A stretch of 64,000 bases of DNA from positions 384,001 to 448,000 of the forward strand of contig JBMNFY010000017.1 in assembly GCA_050949565.1 (NCBI GenBank), in the 5' to 3' direction. The DNA comes from Kiritimatiellia bacterium (GTDB lineage Bacteria > Verrucomicrobiota > Kiritimatiellia > RFP12 > UBA1067). A model generated the notes under the pieces. The model was not told the DNA's origin. It ran no database searches and saw nothing but the letters and a program-made list of their open reading frames with translations. Shown here one piece after another: positions 5,320 through 28,316 of this stretch. A program made the position numbers and the translations under genes. The stretch's first letter is position 1. Every line of letters begins with the position of its first letter.

Positions 5320-5750
5320 ATAACGCAGAGACGCAGAGGCGCAGAGGTTTTTACGGGATGGCGTCGTGACCGCAGAAAGTTGAAAGTTGAGCGTTGAAAG
5401 TTGAGCGTTGAAAGTTTTTTTAACGCAGAGACGCGGAGACGCAGAGATCTTTTACGGGGTGGCGGCGTGACCGCCGCTGGGAGGGGCAAGCGTCTGCTTG
5501 CCCGCGGACGAGCAGACGCTCGTCCCTCCCGGTGCTCCGCAATGGAACCTGAAGTCATCCTTCCGCACAGCGGAAGGCGGCTCGTGGGGACACTCGCCCT
5601 CCATTGCTCGTCCCGGCGGCTCGTGGGGACACTCGCCCTCCATTGCTCGTCCCGGCGGCTCGTGAGGACACTCGCCCTCCATTGCTCGCCTCGGCGTCTC
5701 GTGAGGACACTCGCCCTCCAAATCATGTCAATCATGTCAATCATGTCAAA
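5320..5750. repeat. Composite REP-like repeat mosaic
   Basis: AACGCAGAG-type 3x9-mers, GTTGAAA/GTTGAGC heptamers, GACGAGC..GCTCGTC hairpin, 39-bp tandem x~3.7 (5576-5720), AATCATGTC x3; 5430-5603 recurs at ~23175-23350. Confidence 0.85.
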
Positions 5751-5796: not shown

Positions 5797-6678
5797 TCAT
5801 CGCCCGACCTCCGTTTCGATGGCCGAGGCGGTGAAGATGCGCGCCCCCCACGTCGCTTCATCGTGCCGTTCATTCGCGAGCGTCATCAGAACGGAGGCAC
5901 TGAAGACCACAGTCAATAGCCCGCCGGTGAGCAGACATGTTTCCGAGAGACTGCGCAGAAAGACGCGACCGATACCGCGACGTCGCAGGAGCCGAAAGAA
6001 CACGCCCAACCAGAAGAGGCTCCATCCGGCCAGGGCAGTGGCCGCGCGCACGGAACAGGGAAAAGCGTAGTGCCAGAAAAAGGCGGTGCGCGACCAAGGC
6101 AATTCGGCCTGTGCTCGTCCGGTCTGGAGCGCGAGCGCAGCGGCAAGCCCCTGACGCGTTTCCGGCGTGACACCGAGATAGCGCTCGGCGCGTTCAAAGG
6201 CGGCGGCCGCATTGACACCGTCACCGGCCATGACCAACACGCCGCCGAGGTTCTGGAAGAGCGGCCCGTTGCACACGCCGTCGGCGACCAGCCGGTTATA
6301 GGTGGCGGCGGCCTGAAGATAGGCGTCAGGCGTCGTAGCGGCTGCGGCCTGCGCACCGGCCTGTTCCCAGAGAAAGGCGCGGGCGGAATCGTCAGGGGAA
6401 GCAGCGGACGCACAGGATACCGCGAGCAGAAAGACGCCGACCGCCATTTTCAAAACAGACGCGCAGTGACGAAACGGCGCACAAATGGCGATGCCGTTTT
6501 TGATAACGCAGAGACGCAGAGACGCAGAGGTTTTTCGACGAAGTGTGGGGATTAAGTGTATCTTCGCGCACAGCGCGAAGAGAAAGCGGTGCCGCGACCC
6601 GCGTACAGCGCGGCTCTTGTCACCGCACTCCAAATTTTGCGCACTCACCTGTTTTTCATGAAGTTTCATGTGTTTCAT
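5797..6678 (-). CDS. BatE-like TPR membrane protein
   Basis: TPR-like AAATYNRLV..G..NGPLFQNLG..AAAAFERA followed by TM helices, in bat operon context. ATG 6678 overlaps the batD stop (ATGA); alternative start 6447. Confidence 0.7.
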   Translation of the reverse strand: MKHMKLHEKQVSAQNLECGDKSRAVRGSRHRFLFALCAKIHLIPTLRRKTSASLRLCVIKNGIAICAPFRHCASVLKMAVGVFLLAVSCASAASPDDSARAFLWEQAGAQAAAATTPDAYLQAAATYNRLVADGVCNGPLFQNLGGVLVMAGDGVNAAAAFERAERYLGVTPETRQGLAAALALQTGRAQAELPWSRTAFFWHYAFPCSVRAATALAGWSLFWLGVFFRLLRRRGIGRVFLRSLSETCLLTGGLLTVVFSASVLMTLANERHDEATWGARIFTASAIETEVGR

Positions 6679-8780: not shown

Positions 8781-10370
8781 TTACCAGTCCCTCTCACCCG
8801 GCACCATCGGCATCTTGCGCATGCGCTCTTTCTTTTCCTCTTCGTGCTCTTTTTCACGTTCGAGCGCCTTGCGCAGCAGCTCCTGCACGTCTTGCGGCGG
8901 CTCGGGCTTCTGCTCCTGCGGCTCAGGCTGCTGCTCCTGCTCTTGCTGCTCCTGCTGTTGCTCTTGCTCTTGTTGCTGCTGCTCTTGGTTTTGTTGTTGC
9001 TGATCCTGCTGCTGTTGTTGCTGCTGCTGTGCTGTTGGTTCGGCTGTTTGGGCAGCAGTTCGCGAATCTCCAGCAAATCCTTAAGCGCCTGCTCTTGCAA
9101 CACGCGGCGTTCGGTCTCGGGCGGTTTTTTCTCGACGACTTCGCTTTGAAGTCTCTCGACGTGCTCGGCGATCTTCTCGATCTTGGCTTTGTCCTCAGCG
9201 GTGAAGAGGCGGCATGTTGGTGTCGGTCTGCGCCTGCTGTATGTACTGATCGGCCCACGCAGGGAAGCGTTCACGGAAGAGGCGGGTGAGTTGCAGGGCT
9301 TCGGCCTGTGAGTCGCGCGTTTCCAAATACTTGAGCTTCAAGTTGTGAAGCGCGTTGCTCTGGCAGAGGATGTCTTCGTCGATCGCGGCGTTAGGCGGCG
9401 CGACGGCCTTCCAGAAGTTGTACACGAGTGGCTCGATCTGAGCGGTTTCATTTGCGGCTTCAGGCAGCAGATCCTCAAGCGCCACAGCCGCACCCTTCAT
9501 GCTGTCGCGCGCCAGCTCAATCTGCTGCGCGACCATCGCCTGTTGCTGCGCGTTGGTGACCGCCTGAAGCATCTGTTGCTTGAGCGGAATCCAGAGGTCG
9601 GCTTGCTGTTGCTGACGCTCGGCCAACGCCTCGGCCTTGGCAATCAGCGTCGGGGCGTCATTGGTGTGGAGGGTAGCCGATTCCTCAAGCAACGCGCGCT
9701 GTTCTGCAAGCAGGGTTCCCAGCAGTTGGTCTGGCGGAGTCTGGCCGTGTTTTTCCAGCACCTCCGCAATATGAGCGTTCTCGCGCGCCTCGGCCAGCGG
9801 CGCGACCGCGCGCGTCAGATTGCGGTCACGACGCTCGTCCTGCGGCGTGTCGCGCAACGCACGTTGAAAGGCGACAGCGGCCTCTTCCAATGCTTTAGCC
9901 TTGGCTTGCGGATCTTCTCCCGCACCTTCGGCACTCGCCTGTTCCATCAGAATCAGGCCGAGCAACTCGCCCGCGCGCGCACCGCTCTTGCGCGAGGCGA
10001 GCAACGGGCGCAGGGTCTGCACCGCGTTGGTCATGTCCTGCGCGGTATAATAGGCGTACGCCGCGTTGTAGCGGTACTCCTCGGCCTCTTGCAAGTCTGC
10101 GCCGCGCGCGGCGGAAAGAAAGGCTTCCGCCGCCTCTGTGTGGCGTCCTTTGCGCAATAGTGCCTGGGCTTCGCGCGCACCGGCGCGACCGGGGGCAACC
10201 ACGACCGGCGGACGATTGGTGGCAGAGGACTCGGGGGATGGATCGGACGTTGCATCCGTTTGCGCACGGCCAGCCGAAATGACCAACAAAACAATGATTG
10301 CGGCGGCTGTTGTTGCAGAAGCGGGGGCGGTGCGCGTACGGCTGCCCTTAAACCGTCCGCGACTGAAAGC
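8781..10370 (-). pseudogene. BatC-like TPR/coiled-coil and Q/E-rich C-terminal part of a BatB-BatC fusion, frameshifted
   Basis: TPR (YRYNAAYAYY), Q/E-rich linker and typical BatC ending MPMVPGERDW-stop (TAA at 8781-8783); coding sense switches frame near 10370, 9205 and 9030. Confidence 0.7.
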
Positions 10371-11346
10371 AAGCGGCGGCCAGCAGGCAGAGCAACGCGG
10401 GAATGAGGAAGAGCTGATAACGCTCCTGATAGCGATTTTCGATCTGCTCTTGCTGATCTTTAGCGGCGATGTGCGGCAGCAGATAACGGCGATAGATCGC
10501 ACCGAGCGTGGTGTGCGCCGTGCCGGCCGTGCCGAGCGGGACGTAGCGGCCACCGGAAGCGTCGGCAATCGCGGTAAGCGTTTCGCTCATCAGGCGCGTC
10601 TTGACGGCACTGCCCTTGAATTGCTGAACCCCCTGCCCACCCTCGCCGGGAATGGTGGCACCGGTTTCATCGCCGATGCCGACCGTGAAAATGGGGATAT
10701 TGCGGCGGGCGGATTCGGCGGCGGCTTCCAACGCATCGCCTTTGAGATCCTCGCCGTCTGAAATGAGCAGGATGGCGTTGTACTCGTCGAACGCAGGATC
10801 GAGCGCCTCCAGCGATTTACGGATGGCATCGCCGAGATTGGTCTCGCCGCGCGGGGCTGACTCCGGCGAGACGCCGTCGAGTGCCTGGCGCAGGAAAGCG
10901 TAATCGGTGGTGAGTGGACAGAGCAAGCTACCTTTACTGCGGAAGGCAAGCAGCGCGGCGCGGTCGCCCTTCAGATCATCGATCAGATCCATGATATCGG
11001 CCTTGGCGCGCTCCAGCCGGTTGGGGTGAACATCGGTAGCGAGCATTGAGCGCGAGACATCAAGCGCGATCATCAGATTTCGGCCGCGCGTGAAGACCTT
11101 CTCATCCTTGCGCCCCCATTGCGGCCGGGCGGCGGCGAACACCAGCAAGGTCAGACCGATCATCACCAGCGAGAACTGCGCATAGAAGGCACTCGTCGAG
11201 TGCGCGGGCACCAGCTTTGGCTGCAACGTCGGCGCGATCAGCATCGCCAGCCGTCGCTGCGCACGCCGGTACAGCCAGAGCCACAACATTCCGATCAGCG
11301 GGACGAGCGAAAGCAGAAGCAGTAAAAATGGATAAACAAAACGCAT
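10348..11346 (-). CDS. batB: BatB-like vWA domain protein (5' part of probable BatB-BatC fusion)
   Basis: AAARPQWG, ALDVSRSMLATDVHPNRLERAK (MIDAS), CPLTTDY, LLISDGED. Confidence 0.85.
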   Translation of the reverse strand: MRFVYPFLLLLLSLVPLIGMLWLWLYRRAQRRLAMLIAPTLQPKLVPAHSTSAFYAQFSLVMIGLTLLVFAAARPQWGRKDEKVFTRGRNLMIALDVSRSMLATDVHPNRLERAKADIMDLIDDLKGDRAALLAFRSKGSLLCPLTTDYAFLRQALDGVSPESAPRGETNLGDAIRKSLEALDPAFDEYNAILLISDGEDLKGDALEAAAESARRNIPIFTVGIGDETGATIPGEGGQGVQQFKGSAVKTRLMSETLTAIADASGGRYVPLGTAGTAHTTLGAIYRRYLLPHIAAKDQQEQIENRYQERYQLFLIPALLCLLAAACFQSRTV

Positions 11347-11354
11347 CGTGGAAC

Positions 11355-11386
11355 AGTTAGGAGTTAGGAGTTAGGAGTTAGGAGTT
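11355..11386. repeat. Tandem heptamer arm (AGTTAGG)x4.5
   Basis: Direct reading; reverse complement of the CCTAACT/CCTAAAT arms at 11811-11835 and 11931-11962; contains the stop codon of the four-helix-bundle gene. Confidence 0.9.
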
Positions 11387-11784
11387 GTGTAAAGGGATTC
11401 GGGGTCGAAGTCTGGGGATTCACACACGGAATTGTCTTTCTCATGAAGGGTCTTGGTTGTGGCCGAGAGAATGCGCACAAGCTCATCACAATCGTTGAAC
11501 AAGGGACCAAAGGTAGCGGTCGGGATGTAATCGGTATCATGCAAAAGACGTAGCCAATACCGGGTCTCCAAGGATTCCTTGAAGGCGATTTGAATCTTCG
11601 CCGCAAAGTCCTTTCTGGAGTATGCGCCGCTGGCCTCTTCGATATTGGCACCAATCGAAGTACCGCAACGCAGGATCTGCTTTGACAAAACGTACTCACT
11701 CCGTTCCTTGCACAGCCACTGGAAGAGCCTGACAATCCGAATGGCGAACGCATAGCTCTTCGTCTTTATCGGCGTGTCTCTCAT
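11371..11784 (-). CDS. Four helix bundle protein (TIGR02436 / 23S_rRNA_IVP / Avd-like)
   Basis: KSYAFAIRIVRL...LSKQILRCGTSIGANIEEA...SRKDF..K.QIA.KE..ETRYWL family signature; AAGGAG RBS. Confidence 0.9.
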   Translation of the reverse strand: MRDTPIKTKSYAFAIRIVRLFQWLCKERSEYVLSKQILRCGTSIGANIEEASGAYSRKDFAAKIQIAFKESLETRYWLRLLHDTDYIPTATFGPLFNDCDELVRILSATTKTLHEKDNSVCESPDFDPESLYTTPNS

Positions 11785-11810
11785 GTCAACTCCTTGTTCC
11801 TTCTGTTTCC

Positions 11811-11962
11811 AACTTCTAACTAACTCCTAACTCCTTGCCTATAACTTGAGCGTTAAAAGTTGAACGTTGAGCGTTAAAAGTTTTTTAACTCTGAACGCTG
11901 AACGTCGAACGCTGAACGCTGAAGTCGAAAACTCCTAAATCCTAAATCCTAACTCCTAACTC
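11811..11962. repeat. CCTAACT heptamer arm interrupted by a ~95-bp GTTGAGC/GAACGCT inverted-heptamer element
   Basis: The nested element at 11829-11923 recurs at 21927-22027 and 24135-24226. Confidence 0.85.
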
Positions 11963-11967
11963 CCCCC

Positions 11968-13005
11968 TCAGAGGAGCCTCCTCGTGAGGCTCATATTGAG
12001 GGTAAGTGCAATAGCCACGAGGGCGGCACCCCAGAGGAGGTAACGGACAAAGTGTTCGTCGAACCGCTGGTAGATTTCGCGGTCGATGCGGGTGGTTTCG
12101 AGAGAGTTGATCTCATCAAGCGCGGCCTCGAGCCCATCGTGATCGCGCACGCTGAAGTAGCGACCGGAGGTTTTGGATGCGATGGACTTAAGTTGCGTCT
12201 CGTCGAAGGTGGCGTTGGCGTAGGCGATGGTCTCGCGACCAAAGAGGTCGCGCGTCTTGAAAGGAGTGCGGGCGTTCGAGCCGACGCCGATGGTGTAGAC
12301 GCGGATACCGAGCTTGGCGGCTGCGTCGGCGGCCTGTTCGGGCGTGATGATGCCGGTGTTCGATTCGCCATCGGAAAGCAGGATGATGATGCGCGTTTCA
12401 GGCTCGGCATCAACCAGACGCGCGACACCCGTGGCGAGTCCGTCGCCGATCGCGGTGAGCGTCTCTTCTTGATCGATCGGCCGTCCTTGGGCATCGGTCT
12501 GCGCACGCGGAATCTCCACGCCCTTCAAGACATGCACAAGCGCACGGTGGTCGGCCGTGAGCGGTGCGCGCGTTGAGGCGTACCCGCCGAAGGTGACCAG
12601 TCCGATCAGATCATCGGGACGCGCTTCGACAAATTTTGCGAATGTCTCTTTCACCACTTCGAGACGTGTCTTCCACTCGTTTTGAGACGGCGAAAGATCC
12701 AACGCCTCCATGGAACCTGAAACGTCGACCACCATGCCGATGGCAATGGCATTGACTGAACGACGCGCGCGGGAAAGCGCGGTGCGTGGACGCGCGGCGG
12801 CAATAATCAACAGTAGCGTACCCACCAAAAAGAGCGGGGGCACAAGCGCAGCGGCGGTGGCGCGCCAACCGGCGGTTCGGGCGGGCAACCGGTGCGTCGC
12901 AGCAAAAAGCACACCTGTGCGCCGTCCGGTACGGTACAGGAACCAGACGGCAGCAGCCCAAGGCAGCAGCAGTAGGAAGGCTAAAGGTGTGGCGAAGGAC
13001 AACAT
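11968..13005 (-). CDS. batA: BatA vWA domain protein
   Basis: AAARPR, VVDVSGSMEALD, DLIGLVTFG, TAIGDGL, ILLSDGESNTG, ALDEINSLE. Confidence 0.88.
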   Translation of the reverse strand: MLSFATPLAFLLLLPWAAAVWFLYRTGRRTGVLFAATHRLPARTAGWRATAAALVPPLFLVGTLLLIIAAARPRTALSRARRSVNAIAIGMVVDVSGSMEALDLSPSQNEWKTRLEVVKETFAKFVEARPDDLIGLVTFGGYASTRAPLTADHRALVHVLKGVEIPRAQTDAQGRPIDQEETLTAIGDGLATGVARLVDAEPETRIIILLSDGESNTGIITPEQAADAAAKLGIRVYTIGVGSNARTPFKTRDLFGRETIAYANATFDETQLKSIASKTSGRYFSVRDHDGLEAALDEINSLETTRIDREIYQRFDEHFVRYLLWGAALVAIALTLNMSLTRRLL

Positions 13006-13015
13006 GAGTGATTGA

Positions 13016-13190
13016 GGATTTAGGAGTTAGGATTTAGGAGTTAGGATTTAGGAGTTGGAGTTGGGGCTTGGAGACAGAAGTGAGAGTTGGGGTGCGAAAA
13101 AAGAGGCGAGAGGTGAAAAGAGTAAAAGGTGTTGCGTACATGATTCATTCCTTAAAATTCCTAAATCCTAAATCCTAACTTCTAACTCCC
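13016..13190. repeat. Empty AGTTAGG/ATTTAGG inverted-heptamer cassette
   Basis: Left arm GGATTTAGGAGTTAGG... 13016-13062, right arm CCTAAATCCTAAATCCTAACT 13150-13190, enclosing ~85 bp. Confidence 0.8.
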
Positions 13191-14164
13191 TCTTGGGTGC
13201 GCTCTGAGTCCTCACGGATGTAGGTGCGGGCGCGGTCAGTGGCGGCGTCGGTCATCTCGGTCGTGGCCTTTTGGCCGGCGAACTTTACAAGGTCGGCGGA
13301 TTCGAGGAACGTTTTGAGCTTGGCTACAACTTCGGGCGTGAAAGAGGGATGATCGACGGCGACGGCGAGAAATTCCTGTGTGGTCTGCCCGGGGGCGCGG
13401 ATGCCGCGCGTGCGTTCAATGTAACGGCGCACCACCATGGTCAGCTCAATGTAAAACTCTTTGAAGAGCCCGCGGGTCGGCAGGTTGCGTCCCAACAGGC
13501 GTTGCAGTTCGAGCATGGCGCGGTCAGCAGGCGGCATACGGAATTCGCGCACACGCCGGTTGAGCCGGGTGAGGCCGAAGAGTGCGGCCGCGAGCGCGGC
13601 AACTCCGGCCAGCACCGCGACGATCCAGAGCGCGACCGTACGCGCGGTGGGCGGAACGTAAACCGGTTCGGGATTAACCTCCGGATCGCCGGTCACCGGC
13701 GGACGCGCGCCCTCGTCCGGGAAAATCACTGGCCGCGTGGCAAAGGTCGAGGAGTGAGAGGCGTCGGTCACAGTGACCGCGAAGGGTGCCAAGCGGTAAC
13801 GCTTGGCGGCCGGCTCGGGCACCAGCCGCCAGCGGTAGGTTTGACGCTTGCGCCCGTTGGCAGCGACGGGCTGGGCGGCGAAATCCTCAGCCATGCTGAA
13901 TCCGGCGAAGCGGTCGCGCAGATCCGGCAGCGTGACCTCAAGATGCTCCGGCGCCTCGACCGTGACGGTCAGCATGAAATCCCGGGCGGGGGAAACGCGC
14001 TCGGGCGCGGACTCAAGCTTGATCGCGACCTCGCCATGCGAAAGGTCGGCGGTAAAAGCGAAGAGAGAATGAATAGTTAAGAGATAATAACTAATAACTG
14101 CTAAAGCAAGCCATGTGGTTCGTGGCTGGCGTCTAAAAGATCGAAAATGTCGGATCCCAATCAT
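13175..14164 (-). CDS. Bat-operon membrane protein (BatD-like N-domain plus DUF4381-like C-domain)
   Basis: Signal peptide, TM helix, KEFYIELTMVVRRYIE...QTTQEFL...ADLVKFA motif typical of the gene between DUF58 and batA. Confidence 0.75.
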   Translation of the reverse strand: MIGIRHFRSFRRQPRTTWLALAVISYYLLTIHSLFAFTADLSHGEVAIKLESAPERVSPARDFMLTVTVEAPEHLEVTLPDLRDRFAGFSMAEDFAAQPVAANGRKRQTYRWRLVPEPAAKRYRLAPFAVTVTDASHSSTFATRPVIFPDEGARPPVTGDPEVNPEPVYVPPTARTVALWIVAVLAGVAALAAALFGLTRLNRRVREFRMPPADRAMLELQRLLGRNLPTRGLFKEFYIELTMVVRRYIERTRGIRAPGQTTQEFLAVAVDHPSFTPEVVAKLKTFLESADLVKFAGQKATTEMTDAATDRARTYIREDSERTQEGVRS

Positions 14165-14205
14165 CGCTATTAGTTATTAGTTATTCATTATTCGTTATTC
14201 ACTAT
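14068..14205. repeat. Empty AATAACT/TATTAGT inverted-heptamer cassette
   Basis: Left arm 14068-14100 (AATAACTAATAACTG), right arm 14168-14205 (TATTAGTTATTAGTTATTCATTATTCG...). Confidence 0.75.
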
Positions 14206-14208
14206 CCC

Positions 14209-15087
14209 CTATCTTTTCCGTGCGCGGCGGCGGAAGAGCGCGCGCACATCATCGATGTACGGGGCATCGGTGGAGAGTCGGATGAAATCAATGCCGGTGC
14301 GCCGCAGAAAACGCAGAAGCTGATCGTTTTCGGTAGCGGCCTGTGTGCGAAACGCCTCGCGCACCATGGCGGATGAGGTGTCGACCAGCAACAACTCGCC
14401 GGTCTCGGGGTCTTGCAACTCAATGAGGCCAACATCCGGCAGCGCGGCTTCGCACGGGTCTGAGATCGGGCAGGCGATGACGTCGTGGCGACGCGCGGTG
14501 ACGCGCAGTTCGCGTTCGTAGCCTGTGTCTTGGAAGTCTGAGACGAGGAACACCACGGCCTTGCGCTTCTGCACGTTGTTGAGGAAGCGCAGCGCAGCGG
14601 TGATGTCGGTGCGTTCACGGGTTTCGTCCGCCGCTAACACTTCACGCACGAGGCGCATGACCGCCGTGCGGCCTTTGCGCGGCGGGATGGATTTGAGGAT
14701 ACGGTCGCTGAACAGGATCAGCCCGATCTTATCCTGATTGCGAATTGCGGTCATGGCCAGCAGGCAGGTAATCTCGGCGGCAAGCTCTGATTTGGAGCGT
14801 GTACCGGAACCGAAAATCTGCGAGCCCGAGACGTCGACCAGAAAAACGACGGTGAGTTCGCGCTCTTCCGAATAGCGCTTCACATGCGGCAGGCCGGTAC
14901 GCGCCGTGACGTTCCAGTCGATCGACCGCACGTCGTCGCCGGGCACGTAGGCACGCACCTCGTCGAACTCGACGCCCTGCCCTTTGAAGACCGAGTGGTA
15001 GTCGCCGGAGAGGCGGTCGTCGATGAGATGCGTCGTGAGGATCTTGATCCTCCCGACCTGCTTCATCAATTCTGTCGTATCAATCAT
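14209..15087 (-). CDS. DUF58 domain protein
   Basis: GDYHSVFKGQGVEFDEVRAYVPGDDVRSIDWNVTAR, EERELTV...DVSGS. Confidence 0.92.
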   Translation of the reverse strand: MIDTTELMKQVGRIKILTTHLIDDRLSGDYHSVFKGQGVEFDEVRAYVPGDDVRSIDWNVTARTGLPHVKRYSEERELTVVFLVDVSGSQIFGSGTRSKSELAAEITCLLAMTAIRNQDKIGLILFSDRILKSIPPRKGRTAVMRLVREVLAADETRERTDITAALRFLNNVQKRKAVVFLVSDFQDTGYERELRVTARRHDVIACPISDPCEAALPDVGLIELQDPETGELLLVDTSSAMVREAFRTQAATENDQLLRFLRRTGIDFIRLSTDAPYIDDVRALFRRRARKR

Positions 15088-15089
15088 GA

Positions 15090-15188
15090 TAGAGTGAATA
15101 ACTAATAACTAATAGTGAATAACTAATAGTGAATAACTAATAGTGAATAACTAATGGTGAATAACTAATGGTGAATAACTAATAACTG
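15090..15188. repeat. Tandem heptamer arm (AATAACT/AATAGTG) ~13 units
   Basis: Direct reading; inverted partner arm at 15582-15612. Confidence 0.9.
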
Positions 15189-15203
15189 TGAGATTACGGA
15201 GAG

Positions 15204-15566
15204 TTAAGCGGGCGATTGTTTCTTGAGAGTAAGAAGGCTACTGGTCAACAAGCGAAGCATCTCTTCGCAATCTGCGTAAATACCCGAAAAATCGCGGTGT
15301 GCGAGATAGTCGGTTTCATGGAGTAGTTCAAGCCAAAAAGCGGTTTCCGATGCTTCTTTCAAGGCGATCTGGAGCTTCAAAATAAAATCCTTCCTGCTAA
15401 TGGCATATTTAGACTCAGCGATGTTTGCGCCGATACTTGTACCACTGCGCAGAACCTGTTTGGACAAGACGAACTCTCTCTTCTTTTCGGTTAAGAATTG
15501 AAAAAGTCGGACGATTCTAATCGCAAACGCTTTACTTTTTGTCTGAAGTACGCCATCGGTTTTCAT
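15204..15566 (-). CDS. Four helix bundle protein (TIGR02436 / 23S_rRNA_IVP / Avd-like)
   Basis: KSKAFAIRIVRL...LSKQVLRSGTSIGANIAES..AISRKDF..KLQIALKEASET.FWL; visibly more AT-rich than its neighbours. Confidence 0.9.
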   Translation of the reverse strand: MKTDGVLQTKSKAFAIRIVRLFQFLTEKKREFVLSKQVLRSGTSIGANIAESKYAISRKDFILKLQIALKEASETAFWLELLHETDYLAHRDFSGIYADCEEMLRLLTSSLLTLKKQSPA

Positions 15567-15613
15567 GCAAAATCTCTCCCAACTATTAGTTATTCATTAT
15601 TCACTATTCGTTT

Positions 15614-16597
15614 TTAGGGTACGGGGAGGGTGTTCAGGATGTCGGTGATGATTTTGTCGGTGGTGACCTCTTCGGCTTCGGCTTCGTAGGTGAGCATGAT
15701 GCGGTGGCGCAGCACATCGTGGGCGATCTCCTTGACGTCCTGCGGCGTGGCGTAAGCACGACCGTGCATCATCGCGTTGGCGCGCGCGGCCAGATTAAGG
15801 CAGAGCGTCGCGCGCGGCGAAGCGCCCATCTGAATCTGGTGCGTGAGCTTATCGAGTTTATGCGTTGCGGGGTCGCGTGTGGCGAGGACGATGTCGAGGA
15901 TGTAGTCGCCCACCTTTTCGTCGCAGTACACCTGATCGAGCGTGTCACGCAACGTTTGGACATCGGTTGCGGTGACGACAGCCTTGACCGACGCAGACTG
16001 CTTTTGAGTGAAGCGGTTCATGATGCGCCGCTCGTCATCGCGCGACGGGTGCGTGATGATACATTTGAGCATGAAGCGGTCGACCTGAGCCTCGGGCAAC
16101 GGATAGGTACCCTCCTGCTCGATCGGGTTTTGCGTGGCCATAACCAAGAAGGGCGCGGGCAGCGGATAGGTGTTTTCGCCGATCGTGACCTGATGCTCCT
16201 GCATCGCCTCAAGCAGCGCGCTCTGCACCTTGGCCGGGGCGCGGTTGATCTCGTCCGCCAACAGCAGGTTTGTGAAGACCGGCCCCTTCTTGGGCGTGAA
16301 GGTCGCATCCTTGGGGTTGTAGATCATCGTGCCGATCACGTCGGCAGGCAGCAGATCCGGCGTGAAGGAGATGCGCTGGAATTGCAGGCCGAGAGCCTGC
16401 GCCAGCGTTTTGACCGAAAGGGTTTTGGCAAGCCCCGGCACACCCTCAAGGAGGATGTGCCCACCGGTAATCAGAGCGATGAGAAGACGGTCAATCAGCT
16501 TCTCCTGCCCCACGATTACCTTGTTGACTTCTTGGCGGATCGCCGTCAACGTCTCGGCCTGCGCCGCGACTAGGTTAGTGGTTTTTTCTAAGTTCAT
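15614..16597 (-). CDS. moxR: MoxR family AAA+ ATPase
   Basis: GHILLEGVPGLAKT, RISFTPDLLPAD, LADEINRAPAKVQSALLEAM, ATQNPIEQEGTYPLPEAQVDRF. Confidence 0.95.
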   Translation of the reverse strand: MNLEKTTNLVAAQAETLTAIRQEVNKVIVGQEKLIDRLLIALITGGHILLEGVPGLAKTLSVKTLAQALGLQFQRISFTPDLLPADVIGTMIYNPKDATFTPKKGPVFTNLLLADEINRAPAKVQSALLEAMQEHQVTIGENTYPLPAPFLVMATQNPIEQEGTYPLPEAQVDRFMLKCIITHPSRDDERRIMNRFTQKQSASVKAVVTATDVQTLRDTLDQVYCDEKVGDYILDIVLATRDPATHKLDKLTHQIQMGASPRATLCLNLAARANAMMHGRAYATPQDVKEIAHDVLRHRIMLTYEAEAEEVTTDKIITDILNTLPVP

Positions 16598-16598
16598 T

Positions 16599-17771
16599 TT
16601 AATTAACTTGGGGCGCGGGCTTTGCCCCCGCATCGGGTTCTGCTTTAGGTTTCTCTTCTTTCTTAGGCGCTTCTTCTTTCTTCACCTCGGCCTTGGGCGC
16701 CTCCTCGTCCTTCGCCTCGTCCTTCGCCTCGTCCTTGGGCTCCTCCTTAGGTTTGACGAAATCGGCGCGGCTCTTGGTCATGTTCTCCGCGTTGTAGGAG
16801 GAGATCGCGTAGGCCCACTTGCCGGACTTGGCGTTGAAGTCGTCCACCTTCTTGGTGAGTGCGGCGTTTTCGGTCTCGTTCGTGCCGACCGGCGTGAAGG
16901 CGGCGTTCAGGCGGATGTAACGGTCGGTGCCGCCTTCAGCGACACCGCCGATCTTGGCGGTGTAGCGTTCGCCGTTCTTGAGGGCGACGGTAAAGACCGC
17001 GCCGGTGGTCAGGCCGAGTTGCTCGTCGGTGAGGGCGGGATCGACAACGGCGTTGAAATTCAGATAGCTGAGCGCCGACTCGACGCTGTAGGTCTTGGAT
17101 GTATCGAGTTCTTCCTTGTCGCCGAGGCCTTCCAGTGTCCAGGTGCCGTCCTTTTTGGCGAGCTTGACGGTTTTGCCATCGCGCGTCATTTCGGCGGCCG
17201 TCACGTCGGCCGAAGGCACCGAGGCAATCCGCGTATCGGTCCAGCTTTTGACATCGCCGTCAAAGGCATCGAGCGAATCCTTGACAAGCACCACGGTGTC
17301 GCTGCCGTCAGCCGCGACATAGCGCCCGTCCGGATAACCGCCGCCGCCGAACTGCGCCATTTCGCCTGTGGGCTGGCGCATGTGCTTGTCGCCGAGGCGT
17401 AGCGTAGCGAGCGATTTGCCGTCGGCGTTCTGCAGGTCGATCAAAATGGGGTCGTCCAGTTTCTTGCCGGAGGCCACATGGCCGGCCTTGAGATCGACGA
17501 GCTTGAGCAGGTTTTCCCGGATCTTGGTGATGTCGGCGGGATAGCCGTACAGCGATTCGATCACCCAGCCCGCATCGGTACTGGCGAGCACCAGCTTCTT
17601 GGCGGCGGGGCCGGCCTCGATCCGCGCGACCGCGCTGATGTCGAATTTCTTAACTACGGGCTTGCCGACAATCGAGGGGGCTTTCATTTTCCTGCTAGAG
17701 CTGCTGAGGTAGGCGAGCGCGACCAGTACGGCCGCAACAGCGGTAAGTATGATCAGTTTCTTGTTGGTCAT
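16599..17771 (-). CDS. DUF4340 domain protein
   Basis: N-terminal TM anchor, GWVIESLYGYPAD, LRLGDK; usual position after gldG-like gene; K/E-rich tail. Confidence 0.75.
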   Translation of the reverse strand: MTNKKLIILTAVAAVLVALAYLSSSSRKMKAPSIVGKPVVKKFDISAVARIEAGPAAKKLVLASTDAGWVIESLYGYPADITKIRENLLKLVDLKAGHVASGKKLDDPILIDLQNADGKSLATLRLGDKHMRQPTGEMAQFGGGGYPDGRYVAADGSDTVVLVKDSLDAFDGDVKSWTDTRIASVPSADVTAAEMTRDGKTVKLAKKDGTWTLEGLGDKEELDTSKTYSVESALSYLNFNAVVDPALTDEQLGLTTGAVFTVALKNGERYTAKIGGVAEGGTDRYIRLNAAFTPVGTNETENAALTKKVDDFNAKSGKWAYAISSYNAENMTKSRADFVKPKEEPKDEAKDEAKDEEAPKAEVKKEEAPKKEEKPKAEPDAGAKPAPQVN

Positions 17772-21372: not shown

Positions 21373-22050
21373 AAGTTGAGCGTTGAAAGTTGAGCGTTTT
21401 TTTAACGCAGAGACGCGGAGACGCAGAGATTTTTGCAGGGCACCGGCATCGCTATCGCCGCAGGTCGCATGTCGCGAGTCGCGATTGCGACCACCCAGTG
21501 GTCGCAATGATGAGTGTGAAAGCCCTGCTCTGCCTTGGCCGAATCCGATCCCGATCCCGATAGCGATCCCAACGGCGGCGTGAAACGCCGCCCGGACGAG
21601 CAGACGCTCGTCCCTCCCGGCGCTCCGCGAGTCCGGTCATAGGCTGGAGGGCGAGCGTCTTCGCGAGACGCCTTCCGCGCCGTGCGCGGAATCACAGCCC
21701 CGAAGGGGCGGCATCACCTTAGCCCAGGGCAAGCGCAGCGCAGCCCTGAGTCATGGAGTGCAAGGCATGGTGGCCTGAAAGGTCACTTCAAACTTGCAGA
21801 GCATCGCTATCGGTATCGCTATCGGTATCGCGCGAGTCGCAGGTCGCCAGTCGCAAGCCGCGAGTCAACCTGATGAGTGTAAAAACGGGCGGAAGACGGG
21901 CGCCGAGCGTACGCGGGACATGCGCTAACTCCTTGCCTATAACTTGAGCGTTAAAAGTTGAACGTTGAGCGTTAAACGTTTTTAACTCAGAACTCAGAAC
22001 GCTGAACGTCGAACGCTGAACTCTGAAGGTGAAAACTCCTTGCCTATCAC
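21373..22050. repeat. Composite REP-like repeat mosaic
   Basis: Heptamer, hexamer (ATCGCT/ATCGGT) and 9-mer modules, palindrome ATTGCGACCAC-CCA-GTGGTCGCAAT, REP hairpins; 21498-21660 recurs at ~28150-28315 and 21675-21830 at 22821-22980. Confidence 0.85.
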
Positions 22051-24133: not shown

Positions 24134-24274
24134 TAACTCCTTGCCCATAACTTGAGCGTTAAAAGTTGAACGTTGAGCGTTAAACGTTTTTAACTCAGAA
24201 CGCTGAACGTCGAACGCTGAACTCAGGTACAAAGGGATCGGTATTGACTCGCGACCCGCGACGTGCGACTTGCA

Positions 24275-24630
24275 GCCAACCCTGCCCCCAAAAATCTGCG
24301 TTAAAAATCTAAACCACGAACCACACGAACAACACGAAAGCAGTGCTGTGCCTTTTCGTGTATTCCGTGTATTTCGTGGTTAAACAAACCCGAGCAATGC
24401 CCCTCCAAAATCTGCGTCATCTGTGTAATCTGTGGATAGAAAAAACCGAGCCATGCCCTTCCAAAAACCTTGGCGTTCTTGGCGCCTTGGCGGTTCCAAA
24501 AACCCGAGCAATGCCCCTCCAAAATCTGCGTCATCTGTGTAATCTGTGGATAGAAAACCAAGCAACGCCCCTCAAAAAACCTTCGTGCCCTTCGTGTCTC
24601 CGTGGTTAAAACAACCGAGCCCTGCCCCTG
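24275..24630. repeat. Linker-plus-3x9-mer array, copy 1
   Basis: Linker AAAACC(C)GAGCAATGCCCCTC(C)AAAA with core at 24391, 24447, 24505, 24559, 24616 (period 54-58), alternating with different triplicated 9-mers. Confidence 0.85.
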
Positions 24631-27860: not shown

Positions 27861-28316
27861 CCTCCGCGCAAAGCGCGGAGGCTCCATTTAGGATTTAGGA
27901 GTTAGGAGTTTTTTTTTAACGCAGAGGCGCAGAGACGCAGAGGTTATTGCGACCACCCAGTGGTCGCAATGATGAGTGTAAAAACGGGCGGGAAGACGGG
28001 CACCGGGTGCGCACGGGACATGCAATGGGGCTCGCGCGGGAGACAGCCCCAAAATGCGCCCATCATGCTGTAAATGGTCACGGGCGGGGCGCGGCTGCGC
28101 GGTACAAGGTTTTAACCTCATCTTTGTGACCACTGAGTGGTCACAAAAAGTGGTCGCAATGATGAGTGTAAAAGCCCTGCTCTGCTTTTGCCGATTCCGA
28201 TTTCGATAGCGATCCCGATCCCGGCGGCGGCGTGAAACGCCGCCCGGACGAGCAGACGCTCGTCCCTCCCGGTGCTCCGAGAGTCCGGTCATAGGCTTGG
28301 AGGGCGAGCGTCCCCG
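27861..28316. repeat. Hairpin plus composite REP-like mosaic between convergent genes
   Basis: CCTCCGCGC-AAA-GCGCGGAGG hairpin, TTAGGAG heptamers, AACGCAGAG 9-mers, palindromes at 27946 and 28124, block homologous to 21498-21660. Confidence 0.8.

Follow-up and report, generated by a model that had tools for sequence, protein, structure and literature searches.

Heptamer-enclosed genes in a bat operon

The window analysed here (64,000 nt of contig JBMNFY010000017.1 from a Kiritimatiellia bacterium) carries a bat operon on the minus strand, in which profiles identified moxR (AAA_3 ATPase, 15614-16633), a DUF58 gene (14209-15087), a batA-like VWA gene (11968-13005) and a batB-like VWA gene (10348-11346). 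Two stop-to-start spacers of this moxR-DUF58-batA-batB series are exactly filled by cassettes lying on the same strand. Cassette 1 (11347-11967, 621 nt) makes up the whole spacer from the batA stop to the batB ATG, and cassette 2 (15088-15613, 526 nt) that from the moxR stop to the DUF58 ATG. The only ORF in each belongs to PF05635/TIGR02436, namely 4HB1 (11371-11784, 137 aa) and 4HB2 (15204-15566, 120 aa, pI 9.4), both again on the minus strand. The statement of an earlier note on this DNA that two TIGR02436 genes interrupt the bat operon was confirmed with the profiles of TIGR02436 (E 5.5e-30 and 3.1e-30; 103.8 and 104.6 bits, cut-off 24) and PF05635 (97.6 and 90.5 bits, cut-off 33.8). The G+C content is 50.5% for 4HB1 and 44% for 4HB2, with flanks at about 61%.

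To our knowledge, PF05635 is a common bacterial protein family to which no function has been assigned. Avd, the only relative studied, is a pentameric barrel essential to diversity-generating retroelements (DGRs). A search by sequence only, with a profile built from eight relatives, found 2RLD (E 2e-45 over residues 1-115) and 2GSC (E 0.0096) in the PDB, both entries containing five chains.

Inverted heptamer arrays, as the earlier note had described, enclose each paralog. The downstream arm of cassette 1 (11355-11386, minus strand) consists of 4.6 copies of AGTTAGG on the plus strand (100% matches in TRF), corresponding to AACTCCT in the mRNA sense, and the final codons and stop of 4HB1 fall within it. 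It pairs with an outer upstream arm (11930-11963, minus strand; TRF, TCCTAAA x4.4 at 11933-11963), the two being 94% complementary over 32 nt (11355-11386 versus 11930-11961). An inner upstream arm (11811-11835, minus strand) is composed of GGAGTTA units in sense, the last of which supplies the GGAG ahead of the 4HB1 ATG. The upstream arm is split by a nested, dispersed 94-nt hairpin repeat (11836-11929, no strand assigned), a feature missed in the first reading; the genome contains 17 near-full copies (at least 75 nt), and more copies lie in the window near 21925-22030 and 24135-24225. In cassette 2, the downstream arm (15093-15184, minus strand) is made of the 14-nt double heptamer AATAACTAATAGTG, reported by TRF as 5.8 copies at 15104-15184. 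The upstream arm (15582-15612, minus strand) reads GAATAGT/GAATAAT/GAATAAC in sense (TRF, TTATTCA x2.9 at 15590-15609), and 24 nt of the two arms (15093-15116 versus 15582-15605) are 92% complementary. The host codons, which the earlier note placed within about 10 nt of the arm ends, lie at distances of 1-8 nt (stops, 11968 and 15614; ATGs, 11346 and 15087).

No promoter-like or terminator-like sites were found inside the cassettes, and Rfam gave no match across 10000-17000. For neither cassette was a transposase gene or other mobility enzyme found, and no target-site duplication was seen at filled versus empty junctions compared among related operons, where overlapping stop and start codons are replaced by the cassette. 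Both negatives agree with the first reading, and an assignment to IS elements or MITEs was rejected on these grounds. Other spacers of the same operon, not remarked on in the earlier note, hold arrays without a gene. These are inverted arrays in the g329-batA spacer (13006-13174, minus strand; 13010-13056 with 13159-13189) and a solo array of cassette-2-type heptamers that fills the DUF58-g329 spacer (14164-14205, minus strand).

Occupancy of the same spacers in related operons

A comparison of 20 related operons, covering the batA-batB spacer in 19 operons (the window and 18 relatives) and the moxR-DUF58 spacer in 21, revealed empty sites, which the earlier note had proposed to look for, together with decayed and replaced states. 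The batA-batB spacer has a 4HB gene in six operons (one frameshifted), a decayed cassette with arms kept in two, a solo array in one, gene-less hairpins of other units in two and an unrelated ORF in one. It is empty in seven (-4 to 19 nt, mostly a stop/start overlap). At the moxR-DUF58 spacer we found two intact 4HB genes, one frameshifted copy, three relics, seven empty sites, two GxxExxY cassettes (one internally deleted), four gene-less hairpins and two other inserts. Arrays are absent from the relatives' empty spacers. L031 and L040 have an intact 4HB gene in the g329-batA spacer, which is gene-less in the window. The cassettes are hence inserted, variable units and not fixed syntenic genes, as first suggested.

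The moxR-DUF58 site of L031 and L032, which belong to the same genus, holds a PF13366 nuclease (GxxExxY) cassette with CACAGAT arms where the window has 4HB2 and GAATAAC. Since the other cassette's arms leave no trace there, the arms evidently move with the gene. These sequences show that cassettes come and go at operon spacers and are replaced as whole units. Cassette 1 or its relic occupies one site in 8 of 19 operons from several genera, so it is an old resident whose current mobility is not demonstrable. For 4HB1 'orthologues', dS was saturated in eight of ten pairs (batA dS, 0.58-1.5), and dN/dS was 0.08 and 0.14 in the only two pairs computable. The protein is hence constrained by purifying selection, and its alleles predate the flanking sequence.

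Heptamer arrays and their link to the protein family

The genome of the window contains 1,055 period-7/8 arrays, of which only 32 lie within 300 nt of any of 22 cassette genes and 1,023 are not near one. The copy 1 unit (AACTCCT/AAATCCT) accounts for 166 of them and is among the commonest; 158 of these 166 are intergenic by crude gene calls, and most stand alone. Arrays therefore exist also apart from cassettes. The idea that each paralog has its own heptamer thus holds for the arms, but the copy 1 unit, with its 166 arrays, is not confined to that paralog. The 4HB2 unit was found by TRF in only two arrays of the genome. Each of the five commonest array families has a member adjoining a cassette gene. 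When all TIGR02436 genes of the genome were tested for inverted arms, as the earlier note had advised, a flank-complementarity score of at least 12 was reached by 9 of 9, against 20 of 593 crude control genes, making such arms far commoner around this family. The same score was reached by 6 of 6 GxxExxY genes, and a score of at least 14 by 4 of 7 4HB-suffix genes.

A wider sample of 133 loci from many phyla and metagenomes gave a similar picture. Arms with a score of at least 12 were present at 58 of 73 loci (at least 14 phyla) and at 40 of 60 metagenome loci, and of the periodic arms, 49 of 50 in the former set and 32 of 33 in the latter had a period of 7. The co-variation of heptamer and protein phylogeny that the earlier note had anticipated was recovered (Mantel r 0.445; 0 of 2000 permutations as high), although common descent of whole cassettes may account for part of it, and the rows are non-independent. 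Units differ between subfamilies: AATTA-type (AATTACG-type) units occur at 43 of 73 loci of subfamily 1 and at 0 of 60 of subfamily 2, and AGTGG-type (AGTGGG-type) units at 10 of 73 and 47 of 60. Cross-phylum pairs with about 80% amino-acid identity have AATTACG in common, and dS was saturated in the 10 of 15 such pairs that were computable; the heptamer is conserved beyond neutral expectation. The upstream host gene is co-oriented at 97 of 102 loci (95%), compared with 64.8% for ordinary genes, and at 9 of 9 loci in the window's own genome. The orientation of the ORF is fixed relative to the arms, with purines making up a fraction of 0.58 in the upstream arm and 0.46 in the downstream arm. 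Arm length has no peak at five units, which a pentamer reading one unit per subunit would predict. The encoded proteins are mostly basic (median pI 8.9-9.3).

Such data might also fit a 4HB protein that is a domesticated, trans-acting host regulator, binding heptamer arrays as RNA or DNA to tune translation, stability or termination, with the arrays beside its own gene as autoregulatory operators. TRAP, a ring protein, reads spaced repeats, and such a regulator would resemble proteins of this kind. The many intergenic arrays of the copy 1 unit, the array-family members beside cassette genes, the basic proteins under purifying selection and the excess of heptamer conservation over neutral expectation all speak for it, and MacGregor (2015, PMC4679880) suggested, in the text available from that paper, that TAACTGA arrays near start codons control translation. 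Nevertheless, we consider a regulator unlikely. Presence and absence, frameshift, deletion or a swap with an unrelated nuclease at one spacer among close relatives would be unexpected for it, as would the low G+C and the spread of near relatives across phyla. Inverted arrays around the gene itself are the rule, and with only two arrays of its unit there is no 4HB2 regulon.

An incidental association, in which arrays are slippage-prone simple repeats or insertion hot spots and small genes land within array hairpins with no tie between protein and repeat, seems less probable still. It would agree with the sheer number of arrays, the non-coding hairpin element inserted into a cassette 1 arm, the one-unit (7-nt) indels between natural variants and the over-representation of heptamer repeats in bacteria already published (cited in the available part of PMC4692102). 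It does not account for empty spacers devoid of arrays in relatives, a subfamily-specific heptamer that recurs across phyla and habitats, the fixed orientation of the ORF within its arms or the rarity of such flanks among control genes.

RNA folding and the nature of the cassettes

In the predicted RNA fold, the outer arms are paired in both the MFE and centroid structures (z -4.8 and -3.4), the upstream arm of cassette 2 (15582-15612) pairing with the downstream array. The proposal of the earlier note that the arms pair and bring the host stop and start together is borne out for this predicted fold only. RNA libraries were examined as assembled contigs, which cannot show RNA ends; contigs span both cassettes, and one, 2,869 nt long, extends from a point beyond moxR across the upstream arm of cassette 2 and the 4HB2 ORF without interruption. 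No excised or joined form was seen among the RNA-library contigs, and no contig skips a cassette. Contig breaks at arrays were equally frequent in a run of unknown kind, and one RNA-library contig lacks one 7-nt unit of the array at 14164-14205. Among 155 arm mismatches at 56 loci, those of G·U type on the sense strand were not commoner than those of A·C type (26 versus 36, p = 0.25), giving no pointer to selection on sense RNA over DNA. A gene for RNase III is present in the genome.

On balance, we lean towards both cassettes being members of a widespread class of selfish elements of the intervening-sequence (IVS) type, consisting of a PF05635 four-helix-bundle gene and two inverted, subfamily-specific heptamer arrays. 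Such a cassette would lodge exactly between a host stop and the next start, in sense orientation, and would be transcribed by read-through from the host promoter. The arms of the transcript may then form a basal stem of about 30 bp, looping out the insert and juxtaposing the host stop and start. The stem would probably be a substrate of RNase III, by analogy with ORF-bearing 23S rRNA IVSs, and its processing would let an operon tolerate the insertion. As for the encoded protein, probably pentameric and mostly basic, the word that it recognises is most likely the heptamer. Gain, whole-unit swapping (arms included), frameshift and internal deletion would leave gene-less hairpins and solo arrays; as a guess, cassettes might move when cognate arrays or flanking genes recombine or undergo gene conversion.

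The closest known parallel is the 23S rRNA IVS of Coxiella burnetii. According to the available text of Warrier et al. (2016, PMC4990558), RNase III cuts its 28-bp terminal stem, and its S23p ORF is preceded by tandem GACAGAT heptamers whose number varies between strains. Like the cassettes, an ORF-bearing IVS places a PF05635 (S23p) ORF between terminal inverted repeats that form a long stem (about 28 bp; a predicted stem in the cassettes), has variable-number tandem heptamers by an often decaying ORF and is regarded as selfish (PMC4990558), and one locus of the wider sample (L061) has GACAGAT/GACAAAT arms. Unlike an IVS as described there, the host transcript here is a protein-coding operon, the insert sits between stop and start instead of in a 23S rRNA helix, and the arms are longer arrays, each protein subfamily having a unit of its own; RNase III cleavage, demonstrated for the IVS (PMC4990558), is proposed for the cassettes by analogy only. 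A 23S rRNA insertion in the strict sense was ruled out, both copies lying between protein-coding genes in a region free of Rfam matches.

REP/REPIN-RAYT systems likewise comprise one gene flanked by inverted short repeats that are also scattered gene-less in intergenic DNA, with paired repeat and gene families, and the RAYT belongs to the Y1/HUH transposases, whose catalytic motifs are known. Single genes within inverted short repeats are shared with our cassettes; as to dispersed gene-less copies, arrays of the cassette 1 units number 166, and TRF found two for cassette 2. The 4HB protein, however, has no RAYT catalytic motifs and the repeats are tandem heptamers, not single palindromes; this identity was rejected, the enclosed gene being PF05635 and not a Y1/HUH transposase. 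Ssn proteins, GIY-YIG ssDNA nucleases with NTS/SRM repeats (Chenal et al. 2025, PMC11893778), resemble the proposed cassette proteins in that each member of a small protein family recognises a dispersed short repeat of its own, hundreds of copies of which lie around genes; as far as the available text goes, however, these repeats do not form tandem heptamer arrays, and nothing in it describes the gene as lying between them. Intergenic heptamers have also been reported from Beggiatoaceae, Bacteroidetes and Cyanobacteria (TAACTGA; PMC4679880) and from Xanthomonas (GGGAATC, 70-75 convergent pairs; PMC4692102). As far as the available text of both papers goes, they resemble our arrays in being abundant, intergenic and of period 7, sometimes in inverted pairs and variable in length between close relatives, but no protein partner or cassette is proposed for them, and 'four helix', 'S23' and 'intervening sequence' have 0 occurrences each in either. 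Our literature search found no publication tying PF05635 genes to heptamer arrays outside rRNA.

A role of the genes as Avd-type partners of a reverse transcriptase (of a DGR or a relative), with arrays as template or target repeats, is hardly credible and the DGR identity was rejected: PF05635 does resemble Avd, a related family of small, basic four-helix-bundle proteins thought to bind nucleic acid (in the available text of PMC10053308), and its closest solved structures have five chains, but no reverse transcriptase adjoins the cassettes, 16 kb separate the sole partial RVT_1 match in the genome (C8:45678-45992, outside the window) from the 4HB gene closest to it, and the operon spacers are too tight for a template and variable repeat pair.

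Returning to the selfish IVS-type cassette, we can tentatively extend it, although the extension is itself rather doubtful. PF05635 proteins, and in parallel GxxExxY nucleases, may each read their own heptamer, gene and arrays forming a transposase-less element that homes or gene-converts into cognate arrays and whose decay products would be the excess intergenic heptamer repeats. Since the arms would fold the insert out of the transcript, the same design could permit life in rRNA and in operons. The tie between subfamily and heptamer offers a direct hypothesis for the function of PF05635, namely that each protein binds its own heptamer, and candidate oligonucleotides can be read from the sequence. 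If linked to decaying cassettes, the published but unexplained excess of bacterial heptamer repeats would gain a source. If true, the design of the rRNA IVS would be a general way for small selfish genes to inhabit transcription units, even tightly coupled operons, while leaving these intact.

Two array-flanked cassettes in the bat operon

The host genes of the operon are all encoded on the minus strand, namely a moxR gene (AAA_3; 15614-16633), a DUF58 gene (14209-15087), g329 (a 329-aa gene with no family assigned; 13175-14164), and the batA-like (11968-13005) and batB-like (10348-11346) VWA genes. Two of the operon spacers are filled by small four-helix-bundle (4HB) ORFs on the same strand: 4HB1 (137 aa; 11371-11784) between batA and batB (cassette 1), and 4HB2 (120 aa; 15204-15566) between moxR and DUF58 (cassette 2). 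Both ORFs matched TIGR02436 (E-values of 5.5e-30 and 3.1e-30, respectively) and PF05635, and the arrays flanking each were mutually reverse-complementary, in agreement with the earlier note, which had described TIGR02436/Avd-like genes bracketed by inverted heptamers. An AGTTAGG array of 4.6 copies in cassette 1 (11355-11386) is complementary to 11930-11961 over 32 nt (94%). In cassette 2, 5.8 copies of the 14-nt double heptamer AATAACTAATAGTG (15104-15184) pair with 15582-15612, and complementarity extends over 24 nt at 92% or 36 nt at 81%. The arm ends, said to lie close to the host stop and ATG, were 1-8 nt away from these codons in both cassettes. The G+C content was 50.5% for 4HB1, 44.1% for 4HB2, and about 61% for their neighbours, and the cassette genes look foreign.

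Gene-less arrays were found as a pair in the g329-batA spacer (13010-13056 with 13159-13189) and in the DUF58-g329 spacer (14164-14205). Between the paired arrays (13060-13160), a short open frame starting M-(Y/H/Q)-(A/S)-T-P/T was recognized by eye; it occurs in the g329-batA spacer of four genomes (the window, L032, L035, and L036) and could represent either what is left of a cassette ORF or a conserved small peptide. Furthermore, the upstream arm of cassette 1 is interrupted by a 94-nt hairpin repeat (11836-11929) of TTGAACG-like units, which has 17 near-full copies (at least 75 nt) in the genome, with further copies in the window at about 21925-22030 and about 24135-24225. Its nested position suggests that heptamer tracts are landing sites for other small elements too. 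Longer intergenic tandem repeats also lie beside short arrays (5576-5720 and 24386-24578; 39 nt x 3.7 and about 58 nt x 3.4).

Repeat units and the proteins they flank

The assembly (4.66 Mb, 60% G+C) contains nine full TIGR02436 genes. All nine have short tandem repeats on both sides, the downstream repeat being complementary to the upstream one in the sense reading, and the unit (7 or 8 nt) differs at each gene. We scored flanks by the best ungapped complementarity between the 250 nt upstream and the 250 nt downstream of a gene. A score of at least 12 was reached by 9/9 of the 4HB genes (range 12-36) versus 20 of 593 control genes taken from a crude gene call (median 8), so that the inverted arms set these genes apart from others, as the earlier note had expected. 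Scores were at least 16 at all six GxxExxY (TIGR04256) genes of this genome and at least 14 at four of its seven four-helix-bundle suffix (TIGR04258) genes. Two GxxExxY genes 10 kb apart (C17:555128-555471 and C17:565156-565494) have common arms (AAACCATGAAACACATGAAAC...), and one of the pair is broken into two frames. At two 4HB loci, L055 (C18:11315-11632) and L057 (C8:62233-62547), the ORF extends into the array that follows it, so that the C-terminal tail of the protein is repetitive; one example of such a tail consists of PRNPETPK repeats encoded by an 8-nt unit.

Tandem repeats of the genome (at least three copies) are dominated by period 7 (630 rows) and period 8 (382 rows), and merging yielded 1,055 arrays in 181 unit families. 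Of these, 166 are built of the cassette 1 units AACTCCT and AAATCCT; nearly all of the 166 are in intergenic DNA, and most stand by themselves. Just 32 of the 1,055 arrays have one of the 22 cassette genes within 300 nt. The heptamer is thus not private to the gene: the proposal that each paralog has its own heptamer holds for the arms and fails for a gene-private word. A reading of the genes as masters and the arrays as satellites was set aside, because the same picture would arise if cassette genes had landed in arrays by abundance. With 121 arrays, the ACGCAGAG octamer family is the most frequent in the genome; it is present in the window at 5324-5447, 6506-6529, 21405-21429, and 27920-27943, and on contig C15 a GxxExxY gene (17355-17708) has arms of this unit.

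Locus searches built on two subfamily alignments extended the comparison. The subfamily 1 sample (4HB1/4HB2 alignment, one genome per species) comprised 80 loci spread over at least 14 named phyla, and the subfamily 2 sample comprised metagenome relatives of the own-genome paralogues on contigs C20 and C17. A flank score of at least 12 was obtained for 58 of 73 subfamily 1 loci with full flanks and for 40 of 60 subfamily 2 loci, and the period was 7 in 49/50 clearly periodic arms of the former and 32/33 periodic arms of the latter. The words differed: an AATTA-type word occurred in 43/73 and 0/60 loci of subfamilies 1 and 2, respectively, and an AGT[GA][GA]-type word in 10/73 and 47/60. The subfamily 2 word, (C/T)AGTGG(G/A/C), agrees with TAGTGGC, the arm unit of the member in this genome. 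In subfamily 1, AATTACG and its variants AATTAGG and AATTAAG recur in different phyla. Pairing the upstream flank of one locus with the downstream flank of another gave scores of at least 12 in 67/300 and 53/300 cases, which is not a clean null because loci share units; the own-genome gene set served as the clean control for arm complementarity.

The repeat unit clusters by clade on a tree of 82 proteins. As predicted, heptamer and protein phylogeny co-varied (Mantel Spearman r of 0.445 between protein and rotational heptamer distance; 0/2000 permutations as high), and the unit was common to within one letter in 90% of pairs below 0.25 protein distance and in only 8% of pairs above 0.5. The correlation alone is no proof of recognition, since the loci compared share ancestry and each gene is inherited along with its arms. 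Conservation at saturated synonymous sites is the stronger argument. AATTACG was present in all cross-phylum pairs at about 80% amino acid identity (Kiritimatiellota, Pseudomonadota, Chloroflexota, and Thermodesulfobacteriota), and in 10 of the 15 pairs, a set that leaves out the five with the Chloroflexota locus L071, synonymous sites were saturated at a dN of 0.13-0.24. A neutral 7-mer would be lost over such divergence; the heptamer is conserved beyond the neutral expectation. One heptamer per pentamer subunit was not borne out, as arrays become steadily rarer with length above 2-3 units, without a peak at 5. Some cassettes (L090, L070, and C17:1211488) lie within type I restriction-modification (hsd-like) operons, where the upstream array apparently belongs to the reading frame of the ORF before it; given that two cross-phylum loci have similar flanks too, the whole hsd-like operon may have been transferred.

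Gain, loss, and exchange in related operons

We compared the orthologous operon from 20 related genomes. The batA-batB spacer was comparable in 19 operons (the window and 18 relatives). A 4HB1-type gene within arms of the AACTCCT type is present in six, in one of them with an apparent 1-nt frameshift. Two have kept the arms, which enclose a remnant (309 and 163 nt) with an internal deletion. Seven are empty, with spacers of -4 to 19 nt that mostly overlap as TAATG/ATGA, as in the most distant operons. The remainder hold a solo array (one), gene-less hairpins of other units (two), and an unrelated ORF (one). The moxR-DUF58 spacer was comparable in 21 operons: two have an intact 4HB gene with arms that differ between them, one a frameshifted 4HB gene, three relics with ORF pieces (judged by eye), four gene-less array hairpins, and two other inserts lacking arrays, while seven are empty. 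In the two same-genus operons, L031 and L032, this spacer instead holds a PF13366/GxxExxY nuclease gene (3e-36) within inverted CACAGAT arms, intact in L031 (6917-7312, minus strand) and internally deleted by about 140 nt in L032, the arms being identical. Moreover, two relatives have an intact 4HB gene in the g329-batA spacer, where the window (13006-13174) has arrays only. The spacers are therefore empty, filled, decayed, or replaced among relatives, as would be expected of insertional cassettes rather than fixed, syntenic ones.

No arrays were present in the empty spacers of the compared operons, and no trace of 4HB2-type arms was seen at the same-genus nuclease replacement, so that the unit gained, lost, or exchanged is the gene together with its arms. 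In line with the earlier note, filled and empty sites showed no visible target-site duplication, and no movement enzyme was found. The inserts without heptamer arms at these operon spacers include a 154-aa ORF lacking a Pfam match in L040 (11137-11601, plus strand) and, at moxR-DUF58, those of L043 (1.8 kb) and L045 (0.5 kb), suggesting that the operon spacers are insertion-prone in general.

On a tree of concatenated host proteins, two operons with an empty batA-batB spacer (L037 and L038) were nested among filled ones, with weak support and none at one relevant fork; loss, separate gain, or allelic exchange may account for them. Between genomes sharing cassette 1, batA dS was 0.58-1.5, while 4HB1 synonymous sites were saturated in 8 of 10 pairs, and dN/dS was 0.08 and 0.14 in the two computable pairs. 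These values indicate a constrained protein whose alleles at one site are much older than their flanks, which whole-cassette exchange would fit better than plain vertical descent.

Cassettes as putative intervening sequences in mRNA

Cassettes mostly follow the transcriptional direction of their hosts. The upstream gene was on the same strand at 63/66 and 34/36 loci with both neighbours callable, against a baseline of 64.8% for the ordinary genes of this genome (binomial p of 3.5e-13); in the own genome it was so at 9/9 loci. Among the 102 loci, 71 were inside co-directional gene pairs and 26 closed a unit, the other 5 being placed otherwise. Neither promoter-like nor terminator-like sites were found inside the two cassettes, nor did these match any Rfam family. 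Both were covered by Logan contigs of three metatranscriptome libraries, in which DNA carry-over is possible, including a 2,869-nt contig that extends past moxR on one side and takes in both the upstream arm of cassette 2 and 4HB2. Contigs upstream of the long array of cassette 2 had 2-3x the depth of those downstream in runs X1 and X2 and flat depth in X19, although contig depth is unsuited to ranking parts of a locus. Contig breaks in arrays were alike in RNA runs and in a run of unknown kind, pointing to assembly as their cause, and the listed contig joints link arrays of like units, probably from other loci. Natural variants differing by a single 7-nt unit were found at 13159 and 14168.

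In predicted RNA folds, the outer arms were paired in both the MFE and centroid structures of both cassettes (z of -4.8 and -3.4), the stem starting 2-4 nt past the host stop and ending a few nucleotides before the host ATG. The genome also has an RNase III gene. In the Coxiella 23S intervening sequence (IVS), as described in PMC4990558, a 28-bp stem cut by RNase III closes the loop that holds a PF05635 ORF, and ahead of the ORF lie tandem GACAGAT heptamers whose number varies between strains. A Saprospiraceae 4HB cassette (L061) has GACAGAT/GACAAAT arms, which share their word with the heptamers of the C. burnetii IVS. Taking the folds, the RNase III gene, and the Coxiella precedent together, we read the two cassettes as most likely elements of the IVS kind that reside in an mRNA. 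Several observations limit this reading. Arm mismatches showed no G·U excess (26 G·U-type versus 36 A·C-type), so that this test for sense-RNA pairing cannot separate RNA-level from DNA-level function, and the assembled contigs, which are blind to RNA ends, contained neither an excised form nor a joint skipping a cassette. The missing movement enzyme, the many solitary arrays, and the long residence of cassette 1 at one site also count against it. If the cassettes are IVS-type elements, host transcription would carry them along and the arms would fold them out of the transcript's way; the stem would probably be processed, or melted by the ribosome that terminates before it, and the host cistron that follows would still be served; the heptamer would be the word read by the encoded protein.

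Several parts of this picture are already in print, namely ORF-bearing rRNA IVSs and their excision by RNase III (PMC4990558), the kinship of PF05635 with Avd (PMC10053308), the structure of the Xanthomonas S23p pentamer (cited in PMC4990558), the excess of heptamer repeats in bacteria (cited in PMC4692102), and intergenic heptamer arrays in Beggiatoaceae, Bacteroidetes, and Cyanobacteria (PMC4679880) and, with inverted pairs, in Xanthomonas (PMC4692102). PDB entries 2RLD and 2GSC were found as solved relatives of the 4HB proteins. The two heptamer-repeat papers (PMC4679880 and PMC4692102) make no mention of the 4HB family, and a search of openly available article texts found no description of PF05635 genes within inverted heptamer arrays outside rRNA, of subfamily-specific heptamers, or of a decay series to gene-less hairpins.
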